Part shown: one piece after another, positions 10,411 to 52,300 of the stretch
Layout of the letters: each line of letters opens with the position of its first letter
How positions within the stretch are numbered: position 1 is the first letter of the stretch
NCBI RefSeq assembly: GCF_035084215.1
Contig: NC_090359.1
Span: 24,800,001 to 24,864,000 of the forward strand
DNA: 64,000 nucleotides
Source: Heptranchias perlo
Lineage: Eukaryota
Direction: 5' to 3'
The notes under the pieces: generated by a model
What the model saw: the letters and a program-made list of their open reading frames with translations, nothing else
Told to the model about the DNA's origin: nothing
The model's database searches: none
Position numbers and translations under genes: made by a program

Positions 10411-10682
10411 TTAACAGCTGGTAGCGGATGAAGCCGGGAGTTGTCTTCGCTCTCCAGGATGGTCCCCGAGTGGTTTCGGCAGATGAGAGTGAGGCCCGAC
10501 AGCTCTTGATGAGGCCGAGAAAGACCTTTGTATCAGATGCCCTCAAGTCTCTGTCCGTTGGACTTGAGGGAACAAAGATCAGGGCCAACAATCAGGGGGG
10601 GAAGAGGCTGTAGCTTTCAGTGTTCAAATTAGTTTCATTGTGGTAACCTGGGAACTACCTGATTTTGTAATCTCTGCTGTCG

Positions 10683-10747
10683 GGGAATTTTCTCTTCTCA
10701 TCAAAGTCTGGGGGGAAATTTCAGTGAGAAATCAAACAGCATAAATA
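10683..10747 (+). promoter_or_regulatory. Candidate promoter of the IgV gene: two kB-like sites and a TATA-like box
   Basis: GGGAATTTTC (10683-10692) and GGGAAATTTC (10713-10722), each one mismatch from GGGRNWYYCC; CATAAATA at 10740-10747, ~50 nt before the ATG. Confidence 0.45.
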
Positions 10748-10792
10748 CTGCTCCGCACAACTTTAAAAGCCCCACTTGCAGAGATTAACACG

Positions 10793-10850
10793 ATGGAGAT
10801 TGTCAGACTGGTTTCAGCTGTCGTGTTCCTCGTTGCGATCTCAGAGGCAG
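10793..10850 (+). CDS. IgV gene exon 1, signal peptide (MEIVRLVSAVVFLVAISEA-G)
   Basis: ACGATGG Kozak, hydrophobic core, SEA cleavage-like end, CAG|GTGAGT phase-1 donor. Confidence 0.85.
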
Positions 10851-13800
10851 GTGAGTGACAATCCTCCAGTATATCGTACGCACGGCGGATTATTACCGAT
10901 GTAAACTGTTTCTAACGGGGTGTCCAAGACAACCTGTGAATCTCCTGCCTTGACCTCCCCCACCCCTCGAAAAACCAACTTCAGAAAATTTGGACGTCTA
11001 GGGGCGCTAAATTGGGCCGTGCAGCGCCCGTTGTTTCGGCGCGACGCGGCCTCTTCGACATCCAAGATGGCGTCTTGGATGCGCGCGCGCGTTTCCAGCG
11101 TGACGCGCGCCGGACGCCATTTTGGTATAGGAGTTAGCGCAGGCGCAGATAACGAACGCTGGAATCATGTAGAGTAGGGAGAAAATGGCTTCAATCAGTG
11201 CACAACGCTGATTTAAAGTGACAGACACCATTTTGGGACTTAACGCTCAACTCAACGCACAGTCTTAACCCCGACCGTCTGAACGTGTCTTAGAGTGCCT
11301 GGAGGACCCCCCACCAGCGCTATTTAAAGGGACCATGCAGGATTTACAGGTTAGTGGCTGGATTATTGTAACTGGTTTTGGAGGTCTGCTACACTTGAAT
11401 ACTAGGACGCAGGGACATAGCCAAACATTTCGAGCCAGGACGTGCAGGAGTGAAGTTGGGAAATGCTTCTACGCGCAAAGGGTGGGAGAAGTTTGGAACG
11501 CTCTTCTGCAAACGGCAGTTGATGCTAGCTCAATTGTGAATGCTAAATCTGAGACTGATAGATTTCTGTGAACCAAGGGTATTAAGGGATATGGGGCTAA
11601 GGCGGGTATATGGAGTTAGGTCACAGGTCCACCCTGATCTGATCGAATGGTGGGGCAAAATGCCACCGCCACTTGCTGCCTCCTGATATGTGCCAGCTTC
11701 TCCTGCAAGAAAGCGGGAGGTGTGTCTGGGTGATGTGCCTATCATGGTTGAATAGCTGCCAGTGTGTGTGGCCTGTGGGTTGTGGGTGGGCGGCTCGCAA
11801 CGGTGGTAATGTGTAAGGATGAGAGGGTTGAGTACTGATGGAGTTTGTTGGTAATGGGTGATGGGGGGTGTAGTATGTGGAGCAGTTGGTAGGAGACGCC
11901 ACTTGACAGTTGACCTCACTCACCTTGACCACTCGTCAAAGCATTGAACTTCTTCCTGTACTGCATCCATGTCCATGATGCTGTGCGCCTGGGCATTGAC
12001 TTCATCCCCTACTGCCTCCCACTGCCTTTTGGATGTATGTCTGGAGGGCCTCTTGCCCCCCCCACTCCCCCCCATGGATATAGGATGTCCCTCCTTCTGT
12101 CCACCTCTTGCACCAAGGCCTCTAGTGCATCAGCAGAGAATCTTGGTGCACGGAGTCTCAGATCAGCAGATTGGTGAGGTCTGGCATGCAGATTGGAGGA
12201 TGTGGGATTTAGTGGTGTGCAACCTTTATTCAATGTTTTAACATAACTCATCAGTATGTAAAAACAGGGATGGGACCTGCATCTGTGCTTTACGTGTGCG
12301 ATGTCTGATCTCTGTTCAGACTCCATTCAGACAGCAGGCTGTTATATTCAGCAAATAACAGGTACCAGCTACCTTTAAGAGATTTTCTAACAGACAGCCT
12401 GCCTTTAAGAGATTGGAGCTTCCCCCTGCTGGTGGAAAGTGCAAATTGCATGGATTCCTCGTTCAACGCTGATTTCCAATGTAGATTGCAGGTGAGTCCT
12501 CAGGCTTGACGAAAATCTCGTCCTGCCTGCGCAGGGACCATGGGGCGCGGGGTAATAGCGGATTGTGCTACCCCCGCCCAAAAACAGGCCCGATACAATT
12601 ATCCCCCTCTACTGTTTAAAGTGCCCGGGTCCAGAGGGCCGTTCCTCGATTGGTGGATTTTAACCAATCAGGAAGCAGCCTCTGCCCATCCTCCATGGCC
12701 GTGGAATTTTGAAGAGTCGAAGATTCCAAGCGTTCGGGTTTCGGGGGAGGGAGGGCGAGGAAAGAAGAGGGAGAAAGTGGAGGGGAAGGAAGGGAGGGAG
12801 TACGAAGGGTGCCTCTGAGTAACCAGACACGGCTCACAGTTTGCCCACTGTTTGGGTCTCGGAGAGAAAGAACTTCCCATCGTACGTTGTAATTATCATT
12901 TGTCGGCCGACCGACCCACATCTTGAGAGGGGGAGGGGGGTTTCCGTCTTGGGGAGGGGGGTTTCCGTCTTGGGGAGGGGGGTTTCCGTCTTGGGGAGGG
13001 GGGTTTCCGTCTTGGGAAGCGAATCCCATTAAGGCAGCTATTCATTAAACCTCGTGACAGCTCTCGGCCGAGGCCTTGCTGTGAAAAAAAATGGCCAAAG
13101 AATTCCAAGCTGTGACAGGGAGTTCTGCTTTTTTGCTTTTTGTGTGTACAGCAATCTCACTTTTGGGGGGTCTCACTCTTTGCGTGTATGGCGATCCCTC
13201 TTTTGGGGGTCTCACTCTTTGCGTGTACGGCGATCTCACTTTTTTGGGTCTCTTTGTGTTTACGGCGATCCCACTTTTGGGGGTCTTGTTCTTTGCGTGT
13301 ATGGCGATCTCACTTTTGGGGGTCTCACTCTTTGCGTGTATGGCGATCCCTCTTTTGGGGGTCTCACTCTTTGCGTGTATGGCGATCTCACTTTTGTGGG
13401 TCTCTTTGTGTTTACGGCGATCCCACTTTTGGGGGTCTTGTTCTTTGCATGTACAGCGATCTCACTTTTGGGGGTCTCACTGCGCGTATGGCGGTTTCTG
13501 TGAGTACGGCTGTCTCAATTTTGGGGGTCTCTATTTTCTGTGAGAATGGCTGTCTCACTCTTTGTGTGTATGGCGGTCTCACTTTTGGGGGATCTCAATG
13601 CTCTATGAGTACTGTGGAGTCCCACTCTTTATGTGTGGGAGTCTGCCTTGGTCTAGACTTGGTCTAGGATTCTCACCTTTCCCAGACAGGGTGAGTGAGG
13701 GGGAGGGGAGAGGGAGGGTGGAGTACGAGGCCTTGGGTGACATTGCGACTGCAATTCTGATAGTTGCTTCACCTCTGATGAAAATTCCTTGAAAATCTAA

Positions 13801-16800
13801 ATAGCCAGAGGCTCCCCACCAGGTGTCACAGAAGGAAGTTGGGAAAATGTGTTTCTTTTTTTAACATTTACACATTTCCAGATGGCTCCACTTTAATTGC
13901 ACGAACATGAAATGCAGACAAAAGAAAGATTCCCTCCGATAATTCCTGGCCAAAAAAATTCCTGTACAGCAAATACACAGACTATTAATGACGTTAGCCC
14001 CAAATCTCAGGGACTTTCCTGTTCTGTGTGACTCACAGGGTGTGGTTTTCTCTCAAGGCCAACCGGGGGGTGGGGGGGGGGGGGTGCAGACGGGGCCTCG
14101 GTTTAACGTCTCAACCGAAAGACGGCACCTCCGACAGTGCAGCACTCCCTCAGTACTGCGCTGGGAGTGTCAGCCTGGATTATGTGCTCAAGTCACTGGA
14201 TTGGGATTTAAACCCACAATATTCTGACTCTGAGGCAGGAGAGCTACGAACTGAGCCACAATCATAGGAATATAGGAACAGGAGGAGGCCATTCAGCCCC
14301 TCGTGCCTGCTCCGCCATTTGATAAGATCATGGCTGATCTGTGATCTAACTCCATATACCTGCCTTTGGCCCATATCCCTTAATACCTTTGGTTGCCAAA
14401 AAACTATCTATCTCAGATTTAAATTTAGCAATTGAGCTAGTATCAATTGCCGTTTGCGGAAGAGAGTTCCAAACTTCTACCACCCTTTGTGTGTAGAAAT
14501 GTTTTCTAATCTCGCTCCTGAAAGGTCTGGCTCTAATTTTTAGACTGTGCCCCCTACTCCTAGAATCCCCAACCAGTGGAAATAGTTTCTCTCTATCCAC
14601 CCTATCCGTTCCCCTCAATATCTTATAAACTTCAATCAGATCACCCCTTAACCTTCGAAACTCTAGAGAATACAACCCCAATTTGTGTAATCTCTCCTCG
14701 TAACTTAACCCTTGAAGTCCGGGTATCATTCTAGTAAACCTACGCTGCACTCCCTCCAAGGCCAGTATGTCCTTCCGAAGGTGCGGTGCCCAGAACTGCT
14801 CACAGTACTCCAGGTGCGGTCTAACCAGGGTTTTGTATAGCTGCAGCATAACTTCTGCCCCCTTGTACTCCAGTCCTCTAGATATAAAGGCCAGCATTCC
14901 ATTAGCCTTATTGATTATTTTCTGCACCTGTTCATGACACTTCAATGATCTATGTACCTGAACCCCTAAGTCCCTTTGGACATCCACTGTTTTTAACTTT
15001 TTACCATTTAGAAAGTACCCTGTTCTATCCTTTTTTGATCCAAAGTGGATGACCTCACATTTGTCTACATTGAATTCCATTTGCCACAGTTTTGCCCATT
15101 CACCTAATCTATCAATATCGCTTTGTAATTTTATGTTTCCATCTACACTGCTTACAATGCCACCAATCTTTGCGTCATCGGCAAACTTAGATATGAGACT
15201 TTCTATGCCTTCATCTAAATCGTTAATAAATATTGTGAATAATTGAGGCCCCAAGACAGATCCCTGCGGGACTCCACTAGTCACATCCTGCCCATTGCAG
15301 CTCCTGTCGACATAAACTAAGCAATAGGGACAAAATCAACAACAACTCGCATTACATGGACTTCTGCCTCTATCAGCACGGGGAAGAGAATGAGGATCAA
15401 CTGCAATTGCTGCTCCTCAGGTGTTCCGCACACCTGAGACCTCCCCCTCCCCCTCCCATCCCCCCGCCCCCCACGAGAGAAAGAAAGAATTGCATTTCTA
15501 TAGCGCCTTTCACAACCTCAGGACGTCCCAAAGCGCTTTACAACCAATGAAGTACTTTTTGAACTGCTGTGACGTAGGAAACCCGGCAGCCGATTGGCGC
15601 ACAGCAAGATCCCACAAACAGCAAATGATTGTACCTATCGCAAGAAATATTTAAATGAGTGCACACACTGAGTATTTCAAGTATAACGGAAAGGGAATTT
15701 TAAAATTTAATTTCCTTTCTTGTTTTTAGTCAGTCAAGGGAGAAACCTTGATTGTGGAACTGGCAGACTTTCAGTGAAAAAAAATGTAATTTTGAAACAA
15801 CTTTTAGTGTCTAAAATAAAGTTTCCTGAATTTAAAAGTTTTCGCCACTGATTGAAAGTGAAATCAATTTTCAGTTTACAATGTGGAGCCCTAGTTCAGG
15901 AGAAACTTCTTTGCCCAGAGTAGTTGAGGCGAATATCATAGATGCATTTTAAGGGGAAACTAGATAAACACATGAGGGAGAAAGATATAGAAGGTTATGG
16001 TGATCGGGTGAGGTGAAGTGGGGTGAGAGGTGATCGTGTGGAGTATAAACGCCAGTATAAACCAGTTGGGCCGAATGGCCTGTTTCTGTGCTGTAAATTC
16101 TACGTAATGTGATAACAACCAGATAATCTGTTTTAGTGGTGTCGGTCGAGGGAACGATACTGGCCCAGGACAACGGGGAGAACTCCCACTGCTCTTTTTC
16201 AAAAATAGTGGCCGTGGGATCTTTTACGTCCACCTGGGAGGGCAGACGGGGCCTCGGTTTAACGTCTCATCCGAAAGACGGCACCTCCCTCAGTACTGGC
16301 ACTGGGAGTGTCGGCCTGGATTTTGCGCTCAAGCCTCTGGAGTGGGACATTAAACCGAGGCCCCGTCTGCCCCTCTCGGGTGGATGTAAAAAATCCCACG
16401 GCCGCTATTCAAAGAAGAGCAGGGGGGAGTTCTCCCCGGTGTCCTGGGGCCGATATTTATCCCTCAACCAACATCGCTAAAAAAACAGGTTATCTGGTCA
16501 TTTATCACATTGCTGTTTTGTGGGATCTTGCTGTGCGCAAATTGGTTGCCGCGTTTCCTACATTACAACAGTGACTACGCTTCGAAAAGATGTAAAGCTT
16601 GAGGATGTCCTGAGGTTGTGAAAGGCGCTATATAAATGCAAGTTCTTTCTAATGTGGGTGCTCCAGCTGCATTATTGGTAGTCCCCTAATTTGCATAGTG
16701 TGGAAATCGTCCTTCTCAAGACACATTTCTCCTCCCCACAGGGCGTCTCTCCTGCGGGAATCAGCAGGATACGGTCGAGGCCCACTCTGGAGACGCTGTC

Positions 16801-18058
16801 CATTTGCCCTGCCCGTTCACCTGGGTTGGCGAGGACCCCTCGGAGTACATGGTGGTCTGGCAGCTGACCAGGGGAGAGAACCTCACGGTGGTGCACGACC
16901 GGGAGAACCACGTGGAAAACACGGAGCAGGACCCCAGGTTCAGGGACAGGACGGGACTGGGGCCGGACTGGTTCACGGAGGGAAACGCTACCCTGAGCAT
17001 CAGGAAGCTGGACCTCGGAGACGGGGGAATGTACACGTGTCTCATCACCACCATGAACCCGTATAGCAGGGCGATGTGCGCGGAGACGACCGTATCTGTA
17101 CAGGAAGGTGAGCGAAACTGTTCCCCAGGAAACCGGTCAGGGCTTCAGAGAGAAACCCACTTCAAATTTAAAATTCTCATCCTTGTTTTCAAATCCCTCC
17201 ATGGCCCTCGCTCCCCCTCCCCTATCTCTGTAACCTCCTCCAGCTCCTACAACCCTCCGAGATCTCTGGGCTCCTCCAATTCTGGCCCCTTGCGCATCCC
17301 CCGATTTCCATCGCTCCGCCATTGGCGGCCGTGCCTTCAGCTGCCCGGGGCCCTAATCTCTGGAATTCCCTCCCTAAACCTCACCGCCTCTCTCTCCTCC
17401 TGTAAGTTGCCCCTTAAAACCTCCCTCTTTGTCCAACCTTTTGGTCACCCGTCCTAATATCTCCTCCTGCGGCCCAGTGGATGCAAACGATCCAAACAGG
17501 GCGTTTTTTGAAGAGTTGTTCTCCCCAGTGCCCTGGGCCAGTATTTATCCCTCAACCATCATCCTTAAAACAGGACATTCAACTCGTCTGCTGTTTGTGG
17601 GATCTTGCTGTGCGCGAACAGGCGGTCATGTTTGCCTGCAAAACAACACTTCAAAAGTACTTCACCGGCCGTAAAGGGCTTTGGGGTGTCCTGAGGACGT
17701 GAAAGGTGCTTTATAAATCTTTATTTTTGTAGAATGCTTGGACATAAAACTTACCCTCTGACAGTGGGCGGGAGACCCAGAGAGCGAAGGACGGCTTTAA
17801 TTAACGAGATTCTCTACGATTGCAGGAGCAGGGGGGTCGGACGCGGGGAACGACAGGAGCGAGCCGGATGGCAGAAACCATCAACAAAATCAGGGGAACT
17901 CAACGACAGCCACGGAGCCTGAGCAGATCGCAGGACACAATCCTGATCCGGGGCAGATGTCCAGAGAACTGGGTGGGAGGAGCAGCAAGAGATCCAGATC
18001 TTATTTGCTCGTTGCGCTAGCGCCAACCCTTCTGTTCCTGGTCATCTGCACCTGCTAA
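10793..18058 (+). CDS. Single IgV-domain B7/butyrophilin-like cell-surface protein, probably GPI-anchored; join(10793..10850,16742..17107,17826..18058), 218 aa
   Basis: Two phase-1 GT-AG introns give a 657-nt open frame: signal peptide, V-set domain, polar stalk, hydrophobic C-terminus. Confidence 0.85.
11001..12607 (-). mobile_element. PIF/Harbinger-derived non-autonomous element with a Myb/SANT remnant and an embedded CR1 tail
   Basis: Frameshifted RAPRFSADALEALVQEVDRRRDIL...WMQYRKKFNAL exon with AAG|GTGAGT donor and a next exon EKLAHIRRQQ; imperfect inverted ends GGGGCGCTAAATTG / CAATTATCCCCC; CR1 3' piece (+) at ~11395-11655. Confidence 0.65.
12930..13016. repeat. 21-bp minisatellite x4 (GGGGAGGGGGGTTTCCGTCTT)
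   Basis: Directly visible tandem copies. Confidence 0.9.
13140..13600. repeat. ~38-bp degenerate minisatellite (GCGATCTCACTTTTGGGGGTCTCACTCTTTGCGTGTATG)
   Basis: About 12 diverged tandem units with a partial higher-order repeat. Confidence 0.85.
14086..14260 (-). mobile_element. DeuSINE 5' fragment
   Basis: tRNA-like head plus start of the central domain. Confidence 0.75.
14262..15292 (-). mobile_element. CR1 LINE, 5'-truncated, uninterrupted RT C-terminal frame
   Basis: ORF 14346..15284 ([14 protein letters not shown]); near-identical to the + copy at 20633-21615. Confidence 0.95.
15900..16105 (+). mobile_element. CR1 3' tail fragment
   Basis: GTTGAGGCGAATATCATAGATGCATTTAAGGGG...GGGCCGAATGGCCTGTTTCTGTGCTGTAAATTCTA, shared with 24582-24765 and 31037-31220. 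Confidence 0.8.
16110..16650. mobile_element. Inverted pair of DeuSINE fragments
   Basis: Minus copy ~16110-16335 and plus copy ~16345-16650 share the TTAAACCGAGGCCCCGTCTGCCC...CTCCCC segment. Confidence 0.8.
16742..17107 (+). CDS. IgV gene exon 2, V-set Ig domain
   Basis: ctccccacag| acceptor; LPCPF...VVWQ...RFRDRTGL...GNATLSIRKLDLGDGGMYTC; GAAG|GTGAGC donor; symmetric phase 1, 366 nt. Confidence 0.93.
17160..17470 (+). mobile_element. L2 LINE 3' fragment
   Basis: [13 protein letters not shown]...GGCCGTGCCTTCAGCTG...CTGGAATTCCCTCCCTAAACC; related copies near 8090-8340, 22110-22450, 26990-27345 and 61300-61645. Confidence 0.8.
17826..18058 (+). CDS. IgV gene exon 3, stalk plus hydrophobic C-terminus (...SRSYLLVALAPTLLFLVICTC*)
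   Basis: ttctctacgattgcag| acceptor, phase 1, open to TAA at 18056-18058; CG|GTGAGT donor after 18081 implies a 3' UTR intron; this frame is not in the ORF track. Confidence 0.8.
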
Positions 18059-18169
18059 CCCCGAGATTCTAACTGTTTTCGGTGAGTTCTTTCTGCCCTC
18101 TCAAAGTGAGCAATGCTCGCGCTGGAGAATGGGGCGCTTTCTGATATCTCTGTTACCGTCAAACGTTCC

Positions 18170-18595
18170 CCATGTCACTGCTTTTTTCAAAAAATTCATT
18201 CTCGGGATGTGGGCGTCGCTGGCAAGACCGACATTTACCACCCGTCCCCAGTTGCCCTCGGGTTCGGTACAACTGAGGAACTTGCTAGGCCACTTCAGAG
18301 GGGCAGTTAAGAGTTGGCCACGTTGGTGTGGGACTGGAGTCACATATAGGCCCGGACCGGGTAAAGACGGCAGGTTTCCTTCCCTAAAAGGACATTTTGT
18401 GAACCAGTTGGGTTTTTTTTAACCACAATCCAATAGATTTGTGGTCACTTTTACTGACGTTGGCTTCTTGTTTCCAGATTTTATGATCTGAATTCAGATT
18501 CTCAAACTGGCCAGGGTGGGATTTGAACTCATGGATTATTAGATCAGGCCTCTACATTACTAGTCCAGTAAGATAACCATTACACGACTGTCCCC
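18170..18595 (-). mobile_element. tRNA-derived SINE (second family)
   Basis: Same family as 20754-21160 (GAGTTCAAATCCC B box, GGGAAGGAAACCTGCCGTC core). Confidence 0.75.
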
Positions 18596-19446
18596 CAATA
18601 CCCCCCTCCCTCCTAATATCAAACCCCCCCACCCCCCACATCCTGACCCGGACTGAGATATATCAGCCCTCTGGTACCTCGCCCCATATTTTATACGTGA
18701 ACCTCGACGGTGAGTGTTGGTGGGCTATTTGACTGTGTGGGGCATCACAGACGAGCCCGACACTCTTCTCATCCGCCGCCCTCACGCAAACACTTTTCGG
18801 CAAGTCACTAAATTACCTGCTCATTATCTCATTGCTGTTTGCGGGATCTTGCTGTGCGCAAACTGGCTGCCCCGTTTCCCCACATTACAACAGCGACTCC
18901 ACTTCAAAATGTACTCCATTGGCTGTAAAGCGCTTTGGGACGTCCTGAGGTCGTGAAAGGCGCTGTATAAATGCGAGTCTCTCTTCCTTTCTTTCGTGCC
19001 AGAAGTTTAAGTGCTCTGTCAGAACGACTAAGCTACGTCCTGCCCCCTTTAATGATTTACGAGTTCCCGGGTCTGACTGTGATCATTTACGTTGCAGGTT
19101 TGGATTGGCATGGGCGTAGCAAAGTGCAGACGAATGCGATGGTCTTCGAAAGTGGTACCGGACGATCCTGACCCACCACGCTGCCTCCACGAAGGCCTTT
19201 CTGTCTGGTGTATGCAGCACTCTGGACATGGAGTCAATGGAGATCTGTCAACCAGCTGAGTGGCTTGTAGCGGGGGGAGGGGGAGGGCCGGGGGAGCAGG
19301 ATTGGCACCTCGGTGGGTCTGCAGCTCTGTGTGCGTGCCCTCTGACCTCCCACACCCCTGACCCCCAGAGGATGAAGGCACCAATCACGCACCAACGTTC
19401 AAGGTCAAGAGTCCGGGTCGAAACTCACCTAGTGGGGGAGGGGGGT

Positions 19447-19850
19447 GGTCGTCGCCAACCCTCCAGGATTGGCCTGGAGTCTCCAGGAATTAAAGATTAA
19501 TCTGCGGGACACTGTTGCGGGCAAAGACCCCGGAGAAAAAAAGTCACGGGGGGGGGTGGGGGGGGGGGGGGGGGGAGTGTTATAAAAAACTGTGTTGTTT
19601 TCTTTCAACATTTTCCCTTTTTGAGCCATAAAAATGTCGGAGACGGGGTTAAAACGGACTGTTTTGACTGACGGTCATGAATCGTCCAATTGGGTGACGG
19701 AGAGCCTGGTCGTTCTCCAGTCGGCTGTGGGAAGGCGGGGCCTCACGGAGATGGACATGTCGGACGACCAATGGCGGGGCCGCTGGAGTCCGGCGGTCAC
19801 ATGATGAACTCCCATCCAGGAGTACGGACCAACCAGAGTTGGCGACCCTA
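19447..19850. mobile_element. MITE-like element with short TIRs (hAT-like)
   Basis: Left GTCGCCAACCCT, right AGAGTTGGCGACCCTA; a partial related copy lies at ~49950-50090; superfamily inferred from the TAGGGT- terminus only. Confidence 0.5.
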
Positions 19851-20632
19851 AGCCTGGCGCCTTATTCCTGGTCATCAGCCGGGTCCTGACTGAGCCTTTA
19901 GTTTTAAGTTATTTTTTTAATTTGCTGGGATTATCTTCTCGACGTCACCTCGATGTGAATTTTAAGCTCCCAATGTTGCCCGGCGACTCTCGACAGCGAT
20001 CCCATTTCCGGGTTGAACCGTGAACGTTGGCCGGGGTTCCCGCTCCTGATTGCTCTCCACTGACCCCGGCTGGCAAGTGGATGTTGGACGACAACAGGTT
20101 TGGGGGCGCAGCCAACGATGCCTCTGTGGTTGAATTGCCTGGCGACATGAACCAAAAGGGATTATTAGAATCTGGCGTCAAGACGTCTTTGTTTTGTTTC
20201 GGAAAGCAAAGAAATCCACTGATGGTCTGGTCGGTCAGTGCATCAATTCTGGCCTTTCACTCTGTGCGGGCTGACGTGTCACGAAAGGTTTGATCGCAGC
20301 AGGGTTCTATGGAGCGTCAATAGATGCTGGCAATGTGTACTGGGGGCCAGTGAATGTAACCTGCAGCTTTCATTGTGTCTGGATGAATCATCGTGCCTTT
20401 TAAATGCAGTAGAAGCTTTCAATGAATCTCTCTCTTTCTCAGTATGATTCACGCCCTCCCTGTCTTTAGACTCTCTCATAAAGGCTCAGAGTCTCAGATG
20501 AATGACGCCCCTTCCCTCAGAGACTCTCTCTTAACGAAACTCTCACACGTGTTTCTCTCTATCTCTCTCTACCTCCACTCTTTTTCTCTTTTTCTCTCTC
20601 TCTCTCTCTCTCTCTTCCCTCTCTCTCCTCCT

Positions 20633-21615
20633 TAGCTATACAAAACCCTGGTTAGACCGCACCTGGAGTACTGTGAGCAGTTCTGGGCACCGCACCTTCG
20701 GAAGGACATATTGGCCTTGGAGGGAGTGCAGCGTAGGTTTACTAGAATGATACGGTAGCATAGTGGTTATGTTACTGGGCTAGTAATCCAGCGGCCTGGA
20801 CTAAAATCCAGAGTCATGAGTTCAAATCCCGCCACGGCAGCTGGCGAATTTAAATTCAATTAATTAAATAAAAAAATCTGGAATTAAAAATACTAGTATC
20901 AGTAATGATGGCCATGAAACTACCGGATTGTCGTAAAAACCCATCTGGTTCACTAATGTCCTTTAGGGAAGGAAGCCTCCTGGTCTGGCCTATATGTGAC
21001 TCCAGACCCACAGCAATGTGGTTGATTCTTAATTGCCCTCTGAAATGGCCTAGCAAGCCACTCAGTTGTAAAAATCTCGCTCAAGAAGGCGACTCACCAC
21101 CACCTTCTCAAGGGCAATTAGGGATGGGCAATAAATGCCGTGAACGAATAAAAAGAAAAAATACCCGGACTTCAAGGGTTAAGTTACGAGGAGAGATTAC
21201 ACAAATTGGGGTTGTATTCTCTAGAGTTTCGAAGGTTAAGGGGTGATCTGATCGAAGTTTATAAGATATTGAGGGGAACGGATAGGGTGGATAGAGAGAA
21301 ACTATTTCCGCTGGTTGGGGATTCTAGGAGTAGGGGGCACAGTCTAAAAATTAGAGCCAGACCTTTCAGGAGTGAGATTAGAAAACATTTCTACACACAA
21401 AGGGTGGTAGAAGTTTGGAACTCTCTTCCGCAAACGGCAATTGATACTAGCTCAATTGCTAAATTTAAATCTGAGATAGATAGCTTTTTGGCAACCAAAG
21501 GTATTAAGGGATATGGGCCAAAGGCAGGTATATGGAGTTAGATCACAGATCAGCCATGATCTTATCGAATGGCGGAGCAGGCACGAGGGGCTGAATGGCC
21601 TACTCCTGTTCCTAT
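20633..21615 (+). mobile_element. CR1 3' fragment interrupted by a SINE
   Basis: Matches the reverse complement of 14262-14850; the host sequence GAATGATACCCGGAC is split at 20753/21161. Confidence 0.92.
20754..21160 (+). mobile_element. tRNA-derived SINE with a LINE-derived tail, ATAC target duplication
   Basis: A box TAGCATAGTGG, B box GAGTTCAAATCCC, A-rich end; ATAC on both flanks; another copy at ~47680-48105. Confidence 0.88.
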
Positions 21616-22599
21616 GCTCCTTTCTTTCTGCCTCTCTCTTTTCACCCCTTTCATTTTCTTCCAGCTCTCTCTCACTTTCTCTCTTTTCCCCCTCTCTCTC
21701 TCTCTTCTACCTCTTTCTCTCCGCCTCCTCTATTTTTCTCTCGCTCTCGGGAATCTCTCTGACTCTGAATCTTTCTTACAGACCAGACTTTCTCCCCTTG
21801 TCTCACTGAGTCTCCGCCCCTCCCTCGCTGTCCTGGAGAGAGATACATATTTGCAGCATCTTCATATCACTGTTGAGTCTGTCTGGGCCTAAGGAGTGAA
21901 TTGATTGCCGGATAAATGGAATGTTTATAAAGCTATTCCTCTGGAAACAAAGCAGTATTTTTTGGGGGGGAAATCAATGACTGGAATCACTCGGCTGTAG
22001 TTCACCTGGAACCCAATCTCGCTCCTGCGGTCTCTGTGCACCACACACTACCCCAAGCTGTGCAATCAGCCACCGACAACAACATATATATTGTGCCTTT
22101 TATAGCAAAAAATCGACACCGAGCCACATGAGGAGATATTAGCACAGGTGACCAAAAGCTTGGTCAAAGAGGTAGGCTTTAAGGAGGAGAGAGAGGTAGG
22201 CGTAAAGGAGGAGAGAGAGGCGGAGAGGTTTAGGGAGGGAATTCCAGAGCTTAGGGACCCAGGCAGCTGAAGGCACGGCCGCCAATGGTGGAGCGATGGA
22301 AATCGGGAATGAGCAAGAGGCCAGAATTGGAGGAGCGCAGAGATCTCGGAGGGTCGTAGGGATGGAGGAGGTTACAGAGATAGGGAGGGAGGGTACGAGG
22401 CCGTGGAAGGATTTGAACACGAGGATGAGAATTTTAAAATCGAGGCGTTGCTGGCCCATTCAGGAAATGAATGGGCGAGGTCGATACGCTGACCTCCTGT
22501 CCACACTTGCTGTGGGCAGTGTGGGTTTCTGCCAGTAAAGAAACACAAGGTGGGAAACGTCTTATCAGGTCTGCCACATGGAATCCCACATCTCACCGT

Positions 22600-28300: not shown

Positions 28301-31300
28301 AGGCGGGGAGGGGTGGGGGTGGGGTTAGCGGGGGGTGGGGGTGGGGTTAGTGGGAGGCGGGGGTGGGGGTGGGGTTAGCAGGAGGCGGGGGTGGGGTTCG
28401 CGGGAGGCGGGGGAGGGGTGGGGGTGGGGCTAGCGGGAGGTGGGGGTGGAGTTAGCGGGAGGTGGGGGTGGGCTGGAGGTGGGGTGAGGTCCACATTATG
28501 TCCACCATATGCATCACACAACATTTTTCCCGAACAGTGGCCGTGGGATCTTTTGCGTCCACCTGAGAGGGCAGACGGGGGCCTCGGTTTCACGTCTCAT
28601 CCATTAACAGAACGGGTTAACCATTTCACCTCTCTCTTTCCATTGTGATTCAGTGCTTCCCTCCTGTCCACATATTACTGGAAAAACCAATCTGATATTT
28701 GAGGTAAATTCTCCAATTCTCTACATGCAATACCTCAGCGATATCACCTGCGAGTATTTTCTTCCAGTTGTTCTATATTCCTGGCTTTGGTTCTCCTCCC
28801 TCCCCACTCAGGCTTCCACCTATTCCTGCCTCAACACACCCAGGGGAGTGAGTTGGCCTCTGTCAGTACCAATCTCTGAGCCTGCGCCCAGACCCTGCCT
28901 GACAGGCTCTCCCCCAACGGTCCAGCAGAATTTGGACAGTCAGCATATGTGGCCAAATCTCACGGACACACCGCTGTCCCACAGTGTGGCAAGCTGGAAG
29001 GCCCAGTATCTTTTCAATTGCAACTCACTCTGGTCTCCATATTTTGAAAAAAGGATATAGAGGCACTGGAGAAGGTGCAAAAAAAGATTTACAAGGATGA
29101 TACCAGAACTGAGAGGTTATAGCTATCAGGAAAGACTGAACAGGCTGGGGCTCTTTTGAGAAAAGACTGAGGGGGGACCTGATAGAGGTCTTTAAAATTA
29201 TGAAGGGGTTTGATAGGGTAGATGTGAAGAAGATGTTTCCACTTGTGGGGGAGACCAGAACTAGGGGCCATAAATATAAGATAGTCACCAATAAATCCAT
29301 TGGGGAATTTCAGGAGAAACTTCTTTCCCCAGAGAGTGGTGAGAATGTGGAATTCGCTAACACAAGGAGTAGTTGAGGCGAATATCATCGAATCATAGAA
29401 GTTTACAACATGGAAACAGGCCCTTCGGCCCAACATGTCCATGTCGCCCAGTTTATACCACTAAGCTAGTCCCAATTGCCTGCACTTGGCCCATATCCCT
29501 CTATACCCATCTTACCCATGTAACTGTCCAAATGCTTTTTAAAAGACAAAATTGTACCCGCCTCTACTACTGCCTCTGGCAGCTCGTTCCAGACACTCAC
29601 CACCCTTTGAGTGAAAAAATTGCCCCTCTGGACCCTTTTGTATCTCTCCCCTCTCACCTTAAATCTATGTCCCCTTGTTATAGACTCCCCTACCTTTGGG
29701 AAAAGATTTTGACTACCTTATCTATGCCCCTCATTATTTTAGAGACTTCTATAAGATCACCCCTAAACCTCCTACTCTCCAGTCTATCTAACCTCTCCCT
29801 ATAAGTCAAACCATCAAGTCCCAGCAGCATCCTGGTAAATCTTTTCTGCACTCTTTCTAGTTTAATAATATCCTTTCTATAATAGGGTGACCAGAACTGT
29901 ACACAGTATTCCAAGTATGGCCTAACTAATGTCTTGTACAACTTCAACAAGACATCCCAACTCCTGTATTCAATGTTCTGACCAATGAAACCAAGCATGC
30001 CGAATGCCTTCTTCACCACCCTATCCACCTGTGACTCCACTTTCAAGGAGCTATGAACCTGTACTCCTAGATCTCTTTGTTCTATAACTCTCCCCAACGC
30101 CCTACCATTAACGGAGTAGGTCCTGGCCCGATTCGATCTCCCAAAATGCATCACCTCACATTTATCTAAATTAAACTCCATCTGCCATTCATCGGCCCAC
30201 TGGCCCAATTTATCAAGATCCCGTTGTAATCCTAGATAACCTTCTTCACTGTCCACAATGCCACCAATCTTGGTGTCATCTGCAAACTTACTAACCATGC
30301 CTCCTAAATTCTCATCCAAATCATTAATATAAATAACAAATAACAGCGGACCCAGCACCGATCCCTGAGGCATACCGCTGGTCACAGGCCTCCAATTTGA
30401 AAAACAACCCTCTACAACCACCCTCTGTCTTCTGTCGTCAAGCCAATGTTGTATCCAATTGGCTACCTCACCTTGGATCCCGTGAGATTTAACCTTATGT
30501 AACAACCTACCATGCGGTACCTTGTCAAAGGCTTTGCTAAAGTCCATGTAGACCACGTCTACTGCACAGCCCTCATCTATCTTCTTGGTTACCCCTTCAA
30601 AAAACTCAATCAAATTCGTGAGACATGATTTTCCTCTCACAAAACCATGCTGACTGTTCCTAATCAGTCCCTGCCTCTCCAAATGCCCGTAGATCCTGTC
30701 TCTCAGAATACCCTCCAACAACTTACCCACTACAGATGTCAGGCTCACCGGTCTGTAGTTCCCAGGCTTTTCCCTGCCGCCCTTCTTAAACAAAGGCACA
30801 ACATTTGCTACCCTCCAATCTTCAGGCACCTCACCTGTAGCGGTGGATGATTCAAATATCTCTGCTAGGGGACCCGCAATTTCCTCCCTAACCTCCCATA
30901 ACGTCCTGGGATACATTTCATCAGGTCCCGGAGATTTATCTACCTTGATGCGCGTTAAGACTTCCAGCACCTCCCTCTCTGTAATATGTACACTCCTCAA
31001 GACATCACTATTTATTTCCCCAAGTTCCCTAACATCATGGATGCATTTAAGGGGAAGCTGGATCAACACATGAGGGAGAAAGATATAGAAGGTTATTCTA
31101 ATAGGGTGAGATGAAGTAGGGTGGGAGGAGACTCATGTGGAGCATAAACACCGGCATAGACCAGTTGGGCCGAATGGCCTGTTTCTGTGCTGTAAATTCA
31201 ATGTAATTCTATGTAATCTGTAATTCCCTTTCAAGGGAGGGCCCCACAGCAGATGACGAACAATTCCCCCGTCATTCTAAATGGTGCAACGTCCCCATCT

Positions 31301-34300: not shown

Positions 34301-37300
34301 TGGTGGGGTAGCTCTGTTAATAAAGGATGAAATTGGTATAATAGTGAGAAATGATCTTGGCTCAGAAGATCAAGATGTCGAATCAATTTGGGTGGAGGTA
34401 AGAAATAGCAAGGGAAAGAAATCACTGGTGGGAGTAGTATATCGGCCCCCGAACAGTAGCTACACTGTAGGGCAAAATATTAATCAGGAAATAAGGGGGG
34501 CTTGTAAAAAAGGTAATGCAATAATCATGGGCGATTTTAACTTTCACATCGATTGGACAAATCAAATTGGCAAAAATAGCCCTGAGGAGGAGTTCATAGA
34601 GTGTATTAGGGACTGTTTCTTAGACCAATACGTCGGGGAACCAACCAGGGAAGAGGCCATTTTGGATCTGGTAATGGGTAACGAGACAGGATTAATTAAT
34701 GATCTCAAAGTAAAGGATCCCTTGGGAAGCAGTGATCATAACATGATAGAATTTCACATCCAGTTTGAGAGCGAGGATCTTGGGTCTGAAACTACTGTAT
34801 TAAACTTAAATAAGGGCAATTATAAAGGAATGAGGGCGGAATTGGCTAAAGTGGACTGGGTAAACAGATTAGATGGTACGATGGTGGATAGGCAGTGGCA
34901 AACATTTAAAAAGATATTTTATGACTCGCAACAAAAATAGATCCCTGTGAGGAGGAAAGACTCCACAAAAAGGGTGAACCAACCATGGCTAACTAAAAAA
35001 GTCATAGAGTCATAGAGTCATACAGCACAGATAGAGGCCCTTCGGCCCATCGTGTCCGCGCCGGCCATCAAGCCCAGTCTAATCTAATCCCATATTCCAG
35101 CATTTGGTCCGTAGCCTTGTATGCTATGGCATTTCAAGTGCTCATCCAAATGCTTCTTGAATGTTGTGAGGGTTCCTGCCTCCACAACCCTCTCAGGCAG
35201 TGAGTTCCAGACTCCAACCACCCTCTGGGTGAGAAAGTTCTTTCGCAAATCCCCTCTAAACCTCCCGCCTTTTACCTTGAATCTATGCCCCCTTGTTATA
35301 GAACCCTCAACGAAGGGAAAAAGCTCCTGAGTATCCATCCTATCTATGCCCCTCATAATTTTGTACACCTCAATCATGTCCCCCCTCAGCCTCTTCTGCT
35401 CCAAGGAAAACAAACCCAATCTTCCCAGTCTCTCTTCATAGCTGAAGCTCTCCAGCCCTGGTAACATCCTGGTGAATCTCCTCTGCACCCTCTCCAAAGC
35501 GATCACATCCTTCCTGTAGTGCGGCGACCAGAACTGCACACAGTACTCCAGCTGTGGCCTAACCAGTGTTTTATACAGCTCCATCATAACCTCCTTGCTC
35601 TTATATTCTATGCCTCGGCTAATAAAGGCAAGTATCCCATATGCCTTCTTTACCACCTTATCTACCTGTTCCGCCGCCTTCAGGGATCTGTGAACTTGCA
35701 CACCAAGATCCCTCTGACCCTCTGTCTTGCCTAGGGTCCTCCCATTCATTGTGTAGTCCCTTGCCTTGTTAGTCCCTCCAAAGTGCATCACCTCGCACTT
35801 TTCCGGGTTAAATTCCATTTGCCACTGTTCCGCCCATCTGACCAACCCATCTATATCGTCCTGCAGACTGAGGCTATCCTCCTCGCTATTTACCACCCTA
35901 CCAATTTTTGTATCATCAGCGAACTTACTGATCATACCTTTTACATTCATATCCAAGTCGTTAATGTAGACCACAAACAGCAAGGGCCCCAGCACAGATC
36001 CCTGTGGTACCCCACTGGCCACAGGCTTCCAGTCACAAAAACAACCTTCGACCATCACCCTCTGCCTTCTGCCACTAAGCCAGTTTTGTATCCAAAGTGC
36101 CAAGGCACCCTGGATTCCATGGGCTCGTACCTTCTTGACCAGTCTCCTGTGCGGGACTTTATCGAAGGCCTTACTGAAATCCATGTATACCACATCCACT
36201 GCGTTACCCTCATCCACGCGCCTAGTCACCCCCTCAAAAAATTCAATCAAATTAGTCAGACATGATCTTCCCTTGACAAAGCCATGTTGACTATCCCTGA
36301 TTAATCCTTGCTTCTCCAAGTGGAGACTAATTTTGTCCTTCAGAATTTTTTCCAATAATTTTCCTACCACTGATGTTAGGCTCACTGGCCTGTAGTTCCC
36401 CGGTTTTTCCCTACTCCCCTTCTTGAATAATGGTCAAGGATGGTATCAGGTTAAAAGAAAAAGCATACAACATGGCAAAGATTACTGGTAAGCCCGAAGA
36501 TTGGGAAAACTTTAAAAACTAGCAAAGGATGACTAAAAGAATAATAAAGAGGGAGAAAATAAATTATGAGAGTAAACCAGCAAGAAATATAAAAACTGAC
36601 AGTAAAAGCTTCTACAAGTATATAAAAAGGAAGAGGGTAGCTAAAGTAAACATTGGTCCCTTAGAGGATGAGACTGGGGAAATAATAATGGAAAACAAGG
36701 AAATGGCAGAGGAATTGAACAGATATTTTGTATCTGTCTTCACAGTAGAAGACACTAATAATATACCAATAATAGTAGAAAATCAAGGGGCAAAGGGGAG
36801 GGAGGAACTAAAAACAATCACTAACACTAGAGAAAAAGTACTAGGTAAACTAATGGGTCTAAAGGCTGACAAGTCCCCTGGACCTGATGGCTTGCATCCG
36901 AGGTCTAAAAGGAAGTGGCTACAGAGATAGTGGATGCATTGGTTGTAATCTTCCAGAATTCAGTAGATTCTGGAAAGGTCCCAGCGGATTGGAAAACCGC
37001 AAACGTAACACCCCTATTCAAGAAGGGAGTGATGTGATAGAGTAGTGTTGGCAGTGCAGAAGGAGATGTGGGGTGGGGGCGGTGATGTGGCAGACGGAGT
37101 GTAGGGGAATGAGTAAGTGTACTCACTTTGGTTGACCTACTTAGGTCATTGCAGCGCCTCCTACACTGTATGCAGGTGGGCGATATGTTGGTGGTGCTGG
37201 TGACCTCCTCTGCCACTTCGAGCCAGGCCTCCCTGGCGGCAGAGGCAGGCCACTTCCTCCCGTCTGCCAGGGAGAAGATCTCTGACCTCCCCCTCCTCCT

Positions 37301-49300: not shown

Positions 49301-52300
49301 CCCTCCCTCCCTCGCGCGCTCCCTCTCCCTCCCTCCCTGGCGCGCTCCCTCCCTCTCCCTCCCTCCCTGGCGCGCTCCCTCTCCCTCCCTCCCTCGCGCG
49401 CTCCCTCTCCCTCCCTCCCTGGCGCGCTCCCTCTCCCTCCCGCCCTTTTGACTACCCTACTCGTTGGGGTCTCTCTGTTTCTCTCTCTCTCCCTCTTTCC
49501 CTCTCTCTCTATTACCCTGATCTTGGGAGGTCCGTCTCTCTCTGTTACCGTGTTTTTGTGCAGGGTTGGCCTCCCCGTGGTGGAGTGAAGCCTTTTCACC
49601 AGGCTGAGCTGGTCGGTGGGGCGGACTATTATGGTATGTTAACCGTGATGTCAGCCGGTAGCTCGGCTGAGCACTACGACTCTCTCCGGCGATTTGCTCT
49701 GCCGAGTCCTCGCTGCTAAATTCAGCTGCTCTGTCTCCCTGGCAGGTCCACAAAGATCCTGTTGGACATCTTCATCAAGACCGTGTTCTGCGTGGAAACG
49801 CACGAGATCTCGACGCTCTGCGTGCTGTGGGGAATACGGTGCGGGCAAGGCATTGAACGGATGAGCAATATATCTGGTGGGGCCCAGGTGAGGCAGTTAG
49901 TTCGAGGTTTGAGGGAAAGCCCCTCCTTGTTTCGTTCAGTAGCTGGCACTAGGGGTCACCAATCATCCAGGATTGCCCTGGAGTCTCCGAGATTTGAGGA
50001 TTGATTTCCAGGACACTGCTTTGAACATTTCCATTAATTATTGGAGATTGGGGGGGGGGGAAAGGTCAAGAGTCGGGTGACAAAGAATCAGGGAACGATA
50101 CAGCACAGAATGAGGCCATTCGGCCCATCGTGCCTGTGCTGGCTCTTTTGAAAGAGCTTATCCAATTAGTCCCACTCCCCCTGCTCTTTCCCCACAGCCC
50201 TGCAAATGTTTCCCCTTCAAGTATTTATCCAATTCCCTTTTGAAAGTTATTATTGAATCTGCTTCCAGCGCCCTTTCAGGCAGTGAATTCAAAATCGTAA
50301 CAACTCGCTGCGTTTATAAAAAAATTTCTCCTCATCTCCCCCTCTGGTTCTTTTGCCAATTTAAAAGTTGATTGTTACATGACTCACTGTCAGCCGTGGC
50401 CCAGTGGGCAGCTCTCTCGCCTCTGAGTCAGAAGGTCGAGGGTTCAAACCCCACTCCAGAGACTTGAGCACATAATCCAGGCCGGCACTCCCCAGTGCCA
50501 GTACCGAGGGAGTGCAGCACTGTCGGAGGCCCCGTCTTTCGGATGAGACGTTAAACCGAGGCCCCGCCTGCCCCCCTCAGGTGGATGTAAAAGGTCCCAC
50601 GGCCACTATCCAAAGAAGAGCAGGGGGGGAGTTCTCCCCGGGTGTCCTGGTCAATATTTACCCCTCAACCAACATCGCTAAAAATAGATTATCTGATGGC
50701 TTTCTCTCCGAGCCGCCATGATCTCATTGAATAATGGAGTAGGCTTGAGGGGCTGAATGGCCTGCCCCTTGTCCCGGTGACTCGTTGACCGTAACCGCGT
50801 CCGTTCCTTCTGCCTTGCAGGAGCGTAAGTTTGTCGGGGGAGCGCAGACGATCAGCGAGAGGCTGGCCGAGCGGATCGGGAGGGAGAGGGTCCGCTTGAG
50901 TTCGCCGGTGGTCAGAGTGGAGCAGGCGGGCGACGGCGTGACCGTCACCAGCGAAAGGGGCGAGACGTCTGTGGTGAGGAGCGCCCGGCTCCGGTGGAAG
51001 GCAGCGGAATCGTCTTGAGCGTGTTCCGGTGGGGAGAGGCCGGGTCTGAGTTTATGTACTGGGGAGGGGCGAGGGGCGAGGGGAGTGACCAGGTGTACTG
51101 GAGTCCAGGAACGCCGAGTGGCCTATCTCGGCAGTGCTGCCGCGGGGAGGAGACGGGCACGGACCAGAGTGGGGGATCGGATCTGGTGGGGCCTCCTCCT
51201 GGTCGAGGCCTGGGCGTAGGGCACACACCTGGCCTCTCTAACACGCAGCAATCCAGGGGCAAGGGGCGAGGTAATAATCTACTGGGGGGAAAAGAAAGGA
51301 ACTGTACACCAGGTAGAGGTAGATGCGAAGATTAGGAATCACTTCAACATCCATTAGTTCTCCTTGAGTCTTTTGATTATTCAATATTTTTAATGTTTCA
51401 TTATTAATGATCTCACGTTCAGTTTGATCAAGGTGCTGATCCCGACAGTGTGAGGGAGAGGGATTAACATCGGTAGAGATACAGTCAGTAACACAGGGCG
51501 CTGGGGGGAGAGGGGTTACTGAGTGACAGTGTGAGGGAGAGGGATTAACATCAGTAGAGATACGGTCAGTAACACAGGGCGCTGGGGGAGAGGGGTTACT
51601 GAGTGACAGTGTGAGGGAGAGGGATTAACATCGGTAGAGATACAGTCAGTAACACAGGGCTCTGGGGGAGAGGGGTTACTGAGTGACAGTGTGAGGGAGA
51701 GGGATTAACATCGGTAGAGATACAGTCAGTAACACAGGGCGCTGGGGGAGAGGGGTTACTGAGTGACAGTGTGAGGGAGAGGGATTAACATCGGTAGAGA
51801 TACAGTCAGTAACACAGGGCGCTGGGGGAGAGGGGTTACTGAGTGACAGTGTGAGGGAGAGGGATTAACATCAGTAGAGATACAGTCAGTAACACAGGGC
51901 GCTGGGGGGAGAGGGGTTACTGAGTGACAGTGTGAGGGAGAGGGATTAACATCAGTAGAGATACGGTCAGTAACACAGGGCGCTGGGGGAGAGGGGTTAC
52001 TGAGTGACAGTGTGAGGGAGAGGGATTAACATCAGTAGAGATACGGTCAGTAACACAGGGCGCTGGGGGAGAGGGGTTACTGAGTGACAGTGTGAGGGAG
52101 AGGGATTAACATCAGTAGAGATACAGTCAGTAACACAGGGCGCTGGGGGGAGAGGGGTTACTGAGAGACAGTGTGAGGGAGAGGGATTAACATCAGTAGA
52201 GATACAGTCAGTAACACAGGGCGCTGGGGGGAGAGGGGTTACTGAGTGACAGTGTGAAGGAGAGGGATTAACATCAGTAGAGATACAGTCAGTAACACAG

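Follow-up and report, generated by a model that had tools for sequence, protein, structure and literature searches.

What does a single immunoglobulin (Ig) V domain of B7 type do at the cell surface when neither an IgC domain nor a cytoplasmic tail follows it? The question is raised by a gene in a 64,000-nucleotide stretch of the genome of the shark Heptranchias perlo (RefSeq assembly GCF_035084215.1, contig NC_090359.1, positions 24,800,001 to 24,864,000, forward strand; here called the window). A first-pass annotation, made from the sequence alone, had described the product as a B7- or butyrophilin-like protein with a glycosylphosphatidylinositol (GPI)-type end and had proposed a lineage-specific, non-signaling ligand or decoy. 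On balance, and with moderate confidence, the evidence favors a single CD276-like IgV domain, likely GPI-anchored, that would serve as a non-signaling B7-type ligand or sheddable decoy and bind the same partner as a transmembrane paralogue.

Gene structure and transcript evidence

The gene is real and already annotated in RefSeq. Its three coding exons (10793-10850, 16742-17107 and 17826-18058, plus strand) show GT-AG ends and phase-1 junctions, and their joined translation of 218 residues, which contains no internal stop, is identical to the Heptranchias perlo protein XP_067828272.1/XP_067834923.1 (P0001), named "V-set domain-containing T-cell activation inhibitor 1-like." The features of the gene, in window coordinates, are as follows:

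10793..10850, plus strand: coding exon 1, the leader, 19 residues plus 1 nt, with A at -3 and G at +4 of the ATG and a GT donor; identical to the RefSeq model P0001
16742..17107, plus strand: exon 2, the whole IgV domain, phase 1/1 (Pfam, AlphaFold model); paralogue-type RNA contigs start and stop at its boundaries (16739-17108)
16753..16755, plus strand: Cys24, extra cysteine, strand A, about IMGT 4 (alignment, model)
16810..16812, plus strand: Cys43, canonical B-strand cysteine (alignment)
16904..16913, plus strand: patch holding 5 of the 7 nucleotide positions at which this V exon differs from that of the paralogue, affecting residues 74, 75 and 77 at the end of C' and in the C'C'' turn
17038..17040, plus strand: Cys119, canonical F-strand cysteine (alignment)
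17077..17079, plus strand: Cys132, extra cysteine, strand G, about IMGT 118-119 (alignment, model)
17826..18081, plus strand: exon 3, with stalk, candidate GPI signal, stop at 18056-18058, 23 nt of 3' untranslated region and a GT donor at 18082 (X2 record 14, 0 differences)
17975..17983, plus strand: candidate omega site Gly192-Arg-Ser, alternatively Gly191, 9 residues before the hydrophobic end, inferred by rule
18002..18058, plus strand: terminal hydrophobic segment (residues 201-218) and stop
19098..19480, plus strand: exon 4, non-coding 3' untranslated region, which probably reaches at least 20457 (X2 records 14 and 15)

The putative signal peptide, the single V domain, the stalk of about 60 residues and the tail-less end that had been read from the sequence are borne out by the splice sites, the translation and the identity with the RefSeq protein. 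The V domain is matched by the Pfam V-set family (E 8e-09), the stalk comprises residues 142-200 (59 residues, 23 of them Gly, Ser or Gln by hand count), and the stop directly follows the hydrophobic end. No Pfam family matches the product of exon 3, and only Ig families match the protein. Cysteines are located at residues 24, 43, 119 and 132, with two more (216 and 218) in the end segment, and sequons at N66, N101 and N166; the two additional V-domain cysteines (Cys24 and Cys132) and the NLT, NAT and NST sequons noticed earlier are therefore where they had been placed. A search for C-type exons in 17100-44500 (tblastn of 167 proteins and a Cys-Trp-Cys motif scan) found none, and in the RefSeq model as well as in the orthologues the stalk directly follows the V domain without an IgC domain.

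Transcript evidence comes from four runs (X1-X4) of one sample, which are RNA by guess and consist of contigs only. In run X2, the window's own exons 3 and 4 are spliced: record 14 covers 17824-18080 and 19097-19480 with 0 differences to the window, so the stop is transcribed and does not stem from an assembly frameshift. A frameshift hiding a tail had been suspected from the splice donor 23 nt past the stop and is ruled out by this record. If exon 4 is the final exon, the stop lies close enough to the last junction for the transcript to escape nonsense-mediated decay. Record 15, a separate contig that is unbridged to record 14, lies on 19591-20457. Upstream of exon 3, record 14 carries 27 unplaced letters, which is the number expected from an overlap with the end of exon 2. 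Exon 1 has no contig cover in any of the four runs.

The V domain and its four-cysteine family

Among solved structures, the best match of the protein is CD276, both by sequence (E 4e-20, whole chain) and by family profile (E 9e-17 per domain, at a per-domain score of only 33 bits). Sequence searches of solved structures also returned MOG (E 2.6e-07) and BTN3 (E ~1e-05), with MXRA8, JAML and CAR among the further matches. The claim of a B7-like V domain is upheld by these results. Judged by its sequence, the protein is nevertheless not a canonical B7 member because it lacks the IgC domain and the transmembrane helix: of the canonical features only the IgV domain is present, and the type I helix and tail, both found in the transmembrane paralogue (P0002), are absent. 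That neither IgC domain nor tail exists, as previously proposed, is supported by the exon scan, the RefSeq model, the orthologues and the transcribed stop.

The two extra cysteines very likely form a second disulfide, Cys24-Cys132, between strands A and G, as had been suspected. In the AlphaFold model, the V domain is predicted with high confidence (block pLDDT 90-98), with Cys24 in the strand 21-24 and Cys132 in the strand 128-140; by hand count, the two correspond to IMGT 4 and 118-119, or -19/+13 relative to the canonical pair. Both are invariant in 28/28 aligned members, which were picked by eye, and P0104 and P0105, which lack the pair, were left out of the alignments. Among 410 unselected V domains from 161 proteins, which are related to one another and were counted by residue spacing, 52 carry both cysteines, 22 only that of strand A, 17 only that of strand G and 319 neither. 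According to the available part of a study on antibody domains, engineered Cys4-118, 4-119 and 6-119 pairs are tolerated or formed, and A-G is described as a "hotspot" (PMC10641266). Cys24-Cys132 would be a natural case of this engineered type of disulfide. A similar A and G cysteine pair was observed in six multi-V proteins (P0007, P0028, P0044, P0054, P0091 and P0145), of which P0028 has seven repeats without the canonical F-strand cysteine. Five of the six are in the tree described below, all outside the family clade at unsettled deep forks, and their cysteine pair might reflect convergence or deep kinship.

Relatives were collected from a search of 1.84 billion representatives, to which organisms were assigned afterwards; a profile search for the family was insensitive, as it returned only five proteins and missed known members. 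In a V-domain tree of 72 rows, from which isoform duplicates had been removed along with two thirds of the 113 non-family proteins, 29 rows form one clade (support 91/94) whose members with an assigned organism come from chimaera, sharks, rays, coelacanth, salamander, caecilians and frogs. The window protein groups with this four-cysteine clade, within an orthologue clade of eight shark and ray rows (support 99/96); named CD276 and VTCN1 proteins are not among the tree rows. Tail-less orthologues exist in Pristiophorus, Cetorhinus, Pristis, Mobula and Hemitrygon, and these, together with a family reaching to chimaera, coelacanth and amphibians, refute the notion of a lineage-specific protein. 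Two more divergent H. perlo members, XP_067828258 and XP_067828264, lie on the same 29.85-Mb contig and have counterparts in whale shark, Mustelus and chimaera, so that at least three family lineages are old. In Xenopus, family members were observed on at least two chromosome-sized contigs. No amniote member was found among the named matches, most of the 150 matches being without an assigned organism. The automatic names of the family are inconsistent (CD276-like, VTCN1-like, MOG-like, nectin-4, ICOSL-like), and the literature searched, a scope outside which subscription papers on B7 evolution fall, gives no description of it. Provisionally, and as far as sequences can tell, this appears to be an old, CD276-related family without a name of its own.

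The structural comparison could point to a different role. Foldseek ranks CAR D1 first, followed by B7-H4, PD-L1 and ICOSL, and a GPI-anchored adhesion or epithelial-surface molecule (CAR-, nectin- or Thy-1-like), with the twin as an incidental young duplication, would also fit the presence of MXRA8, JAML and CAR among the sequence matches. Neither twin carries a signaling motif, and no selection signal is seen between them. This explanation is considered improbable, as CD276 is the best match by both sequence and profile, several members share one 29.85-Mb contig, V domains are only ~55% identical between sharks (67/122 for the window protein and its Pristiophorus orthologue), and anchors vary. 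Clustering, fast V divergence and anchor variation are known from immune receptor clusters.

Membrane anchor and transmembrane twin

All features by which a GPI signal is recognized by rule are present in the window protein, namely a leader, a triplet of small residues as omega site, a polar spacer, a terminal hydrophobic stretch and no tail. In 10 of 13 chondrichthyan family proteins the terminal hydrophobic stretch is followed by at most three residues, the exceptions being Hemitrygon (12 residues after it), a doubtful Chiloscyllium model and P0002. A small-residue triplet is located 9 residues before the stretch in 6/6 orthologues (tail starts set by eye), a spacing that fits the usual GPI signal. 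P0001 has four Lys or Arg residues in the 10 positions before the stretch and none after it, whereas P0002 has none before and four after; in terms of sequence, the charge layout of P0001 is the reverse of that of a type I anchor. GPI attachment near Gly192 is thus considered probable, and the GPI-type end of the first-pass annotation is likely, given that the spacing of the triplet before the terminal stretch is kept in 6/6 orthologues.

Alternatively, the end might be an uncleaved, tail-less transmembrane helix palmitoylated on Cys216 and Cys218, or the protein might be secreted. The segment of 18-19 residues (KD15 2.8) is modeled as a helix, and terminal cysteines are also found in the Pristiophorus and Cetorhinus orthologues. 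This is quite unlikely, however, since the basic residues are on the wrong side, the segments of the ray orthologues are weaker and only 15 residues long, and the spacing of the omega-like triplet is conserved. Most members from bony vertebrates possess a true helix and a tail, a second Ig domain occurs in some and two hydrophobic segments in others, and from these sequences the family is one that changes anchors often. Three Xenopus members (P0096, P0113 and P0157) show two hydrophobic segments after the V domain and an end of 4-6 residues.

The transmembrane twin P0002 (XP_067828273.1, "CD276-like" in RefSeq) has the accession next to that of P0001, and its gene lies outside the window. The two proteins are identical at 5/19 positions of the leader, 118/122 (97%) of the V exon and 16/97 of the remainder (z -0.1), whereas P0001 and its Pristiophorus orthologue share 10/19, 67/122 and 38/80 (z 14.9), respectively. 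P0002 ends in a 23-residue helix, a basic stop-transfer sequence and a 28-residue tail without tyrosine, and its stalk is unrelated to that of P0001. In the tree, its V domain is sister to that of P0001 (support 100/99) and nested among the tail-less orthologues. A topology with P0002 outside the clade of tail-less orthologues was rejected (p-AU 0.027), as was one joining it to the transmembrane members of bony vertebrates (p-AU 3e-05); the groups tested were defined after the 72-row tree was seen. Because of this nested position, it is likely that, in the lineage of this shark, a transmembrane gene acquired the V exon from the tail-less lineage, and a recent copy of the exon into that gene, by exon duplication or gene conversion, is probable on sequence grounds. 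Relatives of the stalk, helix and tail of P0002 were limited to P0002 itself among 10 candidates, with none among the 167 stored proteins, both being weak negatives.

The two V exons differ at seven nucleotides, five of them replacement and two silent, which results in four residue differences. Five of the seven fall within 10 nt at the C'C'' turn (p ~1.5e-05 under uniform placement), and one replacement is located at the start of the FG loop. The C'C''/FG face is the one that B7 ligands use.

The P0002-type V exon is seen in 4/4 runs: one contig covers exactly the V exon and carries the seven differences that yield the four residues of P0002. In X1, X3 and X4, the V contig runs on for ~790 letters that are not found in the window, and in X2, the run with the deepest cover of the window gene's exon 3, it ends together with the exon, as at a branch to two 3' ends. 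Both P0001 and P0002 have two accessions on two contigs, which may reflect either a segmental duplication of recent date or a haplotype that was assembled twice. The twin itself could accordingly be suspected of being an annotation or assembly artifact (alleles, haplotigs or a mis-joined gene model), and these double accessions hint at a duplicated assembly region. Such an artifact is very improbable, as the accessions of P0001 and P0002 are consecutive and on the same longest contig, the RNA-type contigs carry exactly the four residues of P0002 and run, at both exon ends, into sequence absent from 10600-20540, and the V contig of X2 stops precisely at the point where a branch to two 3' ends is expected.

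Near-identical V domains on different anchors could also represent a pathogen receptor and its decoy, in which a microbe binds the transmembrane V domain and the sheddable GPI form traps the microbe, as proposed for CEACAM1 versus CEA/CEACAM6. The CEACAM family offers, in the available part of its description, a precedent for both gene conversion and GPI-linked decoys (PMC2832619), and the clustering of differences in the C'C'' region would be in line with such a role. This explanation is nonetheless unlikely: the V exon apparently came from the tail-less lineage rather than from the transmembrane gene, a single mutational or conversion event could have produced the cluster of changes, and no transmembrane counterpart was found in other sharks, although with only 10 candidates this last point is weak.

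Proposed working, genomic setting and known systems

In the favored reading of a B7-type ligand or decoy, the leader would route the protein to the endoplasmic reticulum, where the end signal would be replaced by GPI near Gly192, and the V domain with its two disulfides would be held out on the glycosylated 59-residue stalk. Lacking a tail, the protein would have no signaling of its own and would act in trans as a ligand or, once shed, as a decoy, while in the transmembrane twin an almost identical surface would be held permanently at the membrane and could not be shed. Given their 97% identical V domains, both twins would likely bind the same partner. With its B7-like V domain and no tail, the role of non-signaling ligand or decoy proposed at the outset is kept as the likeliest one. 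The twins are, by sequence, not a classical pair of activating and inhibitory forms, that is, with an immunoreceptor tyrosine-based activation motif (ITAM) or inhibitory motif (ITIM), because P0002 has neither a tyrosine motif nor a charged helix residue.

The nature of the partner is a more tentative matter, and it is possible that the GFCC'C'' face binds a VJ-type lymphocyte receptor of the CD28/NKp30 kind. In the annotation, the Mobula orthologue (P0012) follows a fused VJ-type Ig protein (residues ~27-182) whose structural neighbors include VSTM4, CTLA4-like proteins, PD-1 and T-cell receptor V domains. Similarly, the caecilian member P0129 (Geotrypetes) is fused in front of a partial homologous Ig domain (residues ~214-256), and the two fused domains are 46% identical over 41 residues. 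This suggests, from two gene models only, a long-kept adjacency of a ligand-like and a receptor-like gene. The loop motifs PPP and EIP, which the available part of PMC11599192 gives as features of CD28-family members, are missing from the Mobula VJ-type protein, which is therefore left without a family assignment. A complex prediction for the Mobula family V domain and its fused neighbor, made without alignment, speaks neither for nor against binding (score 0.01). A wider proposal is speculative and rather doubtful: a B7-related ligand family as old as jawed vertebrates and marked by the A-G disulfide, linked as a cassette to its own VJ-type receptor gene (rays, amphibians) and swapping anchors freely, whose twin pair in this shark arose recently by V-exon transfer and tunes one lymphocyte checkpoint.

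Several observations weigh against the ligand or decoy reading. The CAR D1 domain stands above the B7 proteins in the structural ranking, so that, by the model, an adhesion role is possible, and the support of the family clade (91/94) falls short of the tool's 95/80 mark. Between the twins, the 5:2 ratio of replacement to silent changes is about neutral and gives no selection signal, and residues 72-79 vary among orthologues anyway. Tyr motifs are missing from the P0002 tail and charged residues from its helix, and P0001 has no tail at all. Neither a VJ-type exon nor a second V exon was found in the window. The judgment on GPI is based on rules only, the G-R-S omega site of this shark is less typical than those of its orthologues, and the two terminal cysteines could be palmitoylated on a tail-less helix. 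As to the transcripts, which stem from a single presumed RNA sample, the V contigs match the paralogue in sequence, the V exon of the window gene is not among the RNA-type contigs of the four runs, and the joint of exons 2 and 3 is inferred from the 27 unplaced letters only.

The remaining features of the window are the following:

~44690-50965, plus strand: flavin amine oxidase (monoamine-oxidase-like) exons at ~44690, 45880, 48200 and 50820, the last matching Pfam Amino_oxidase (E 9e-07)
40739-43711, plus strand: long reverse-transcriptase-like frame of a long interspersed nuclear element (LINE)
29690-31132, minus strand: LINE frame of the same kind
35084-36433, minus strand: LINE frame of the same kind
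14346-15335, minus strand: LINE frame of the same kind
14253-14726 and 21161-21634: 97% identical inverted copies flanking exons 2-4
12930-13016: minisatellite in intron 1, 21 bp x 4.1, perfect
13139-13481: minisatellite in intron 1, 39 bp x 9, with a 152-bp higher-order period

The flavin amine oxidase gene is the only other gene seen in the window and a possible synteny marker for the cluster. One of the LINE frames extends over 990 residues without a stop.

Among known systems, CD276 (B7-H3) and VTCN1 (B7-H4) have the closest V domains of solved structure, and the twins were automatically named after both. Unlike them, the window protein has no IgC domain, transmembrane helix or tail, and CD276 has Val at the position of the family's A-strand cysteine. 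MOG and the butyrophilins have a related V domain, and MOG is likewise a single-V protein, but the match is weaker than that to CD276, and P0001 lacks the IgC domain, B30.2 domain and transmembrane segment. MOG has two hydrophobic segments, as do the three Xenopus family members. Thy-1 and CD160 are single GPI-anchored V domains with extra cysteines, and Fc-gamma-RIIIA and IIIB are transmembrane and GPI-anchored twins. The earlier comparison with Thy-1 holds for the architecture of a single V domain with a GPI-type end, but not beyond it: the second disulfide of Thy-1 has the register -10/+26 as compared to -19/+13 in the shark family, and none of Fc-gamma-RIII, Thy-1 and CD160 is among the 60 best solved-structure matches listed, nor is Thy-1 among the Foldseek matches listed.

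The diverse Ig domain-containing proteins (DICPs) of fish resemble the family in several respects. Their specific cysteines probably lie in the BC loop and the D-E region, and not in strands A and G; compared by description only, they differ further in having forms with ITIM or charged helices. The available part of the DICP study describes a clustered Ig family with four conserved cysteines per domain, D1-only and D1-D2 forms and a coelacanth candidate (bioRxiv 2021.06.11.448072). The CEACAM family, in which near-identical V domains on different anchors are kept alike by conversion or recombination and GPI forms are proposed decoys (PMC2832619, available part), is a parallel in arrangement: CEACAM1, with GPI-linked CEA/CEACAM6 and with CEACAM3, resembles the shark twins in its near-identical V domains on differing anchors. 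It belongs to a different sequence family, however, the shark twins carry neither ITIM nor ITAM, and the older condition in cartilaginous fish seems to be the tail-less one.

Surveys of jawed vertebrates distinguish nine CD28-family receptor types, of which humans lack four (PMC11599192, available part). The ligands of these receptor types are a natural next question, for which the four-cysteine, B7-related clade supplies directly testable candidates, and the twin pair, with nearly one binding domain on two anchors, constitutes a natural experiment. Single-V GPI proteins and anchor-swapped twins are known from other systems; the shark gene adds a variant, an apparently unnamed, old four-cysteine B7-related family with a young pair of GPI-type and transmembrane twins.

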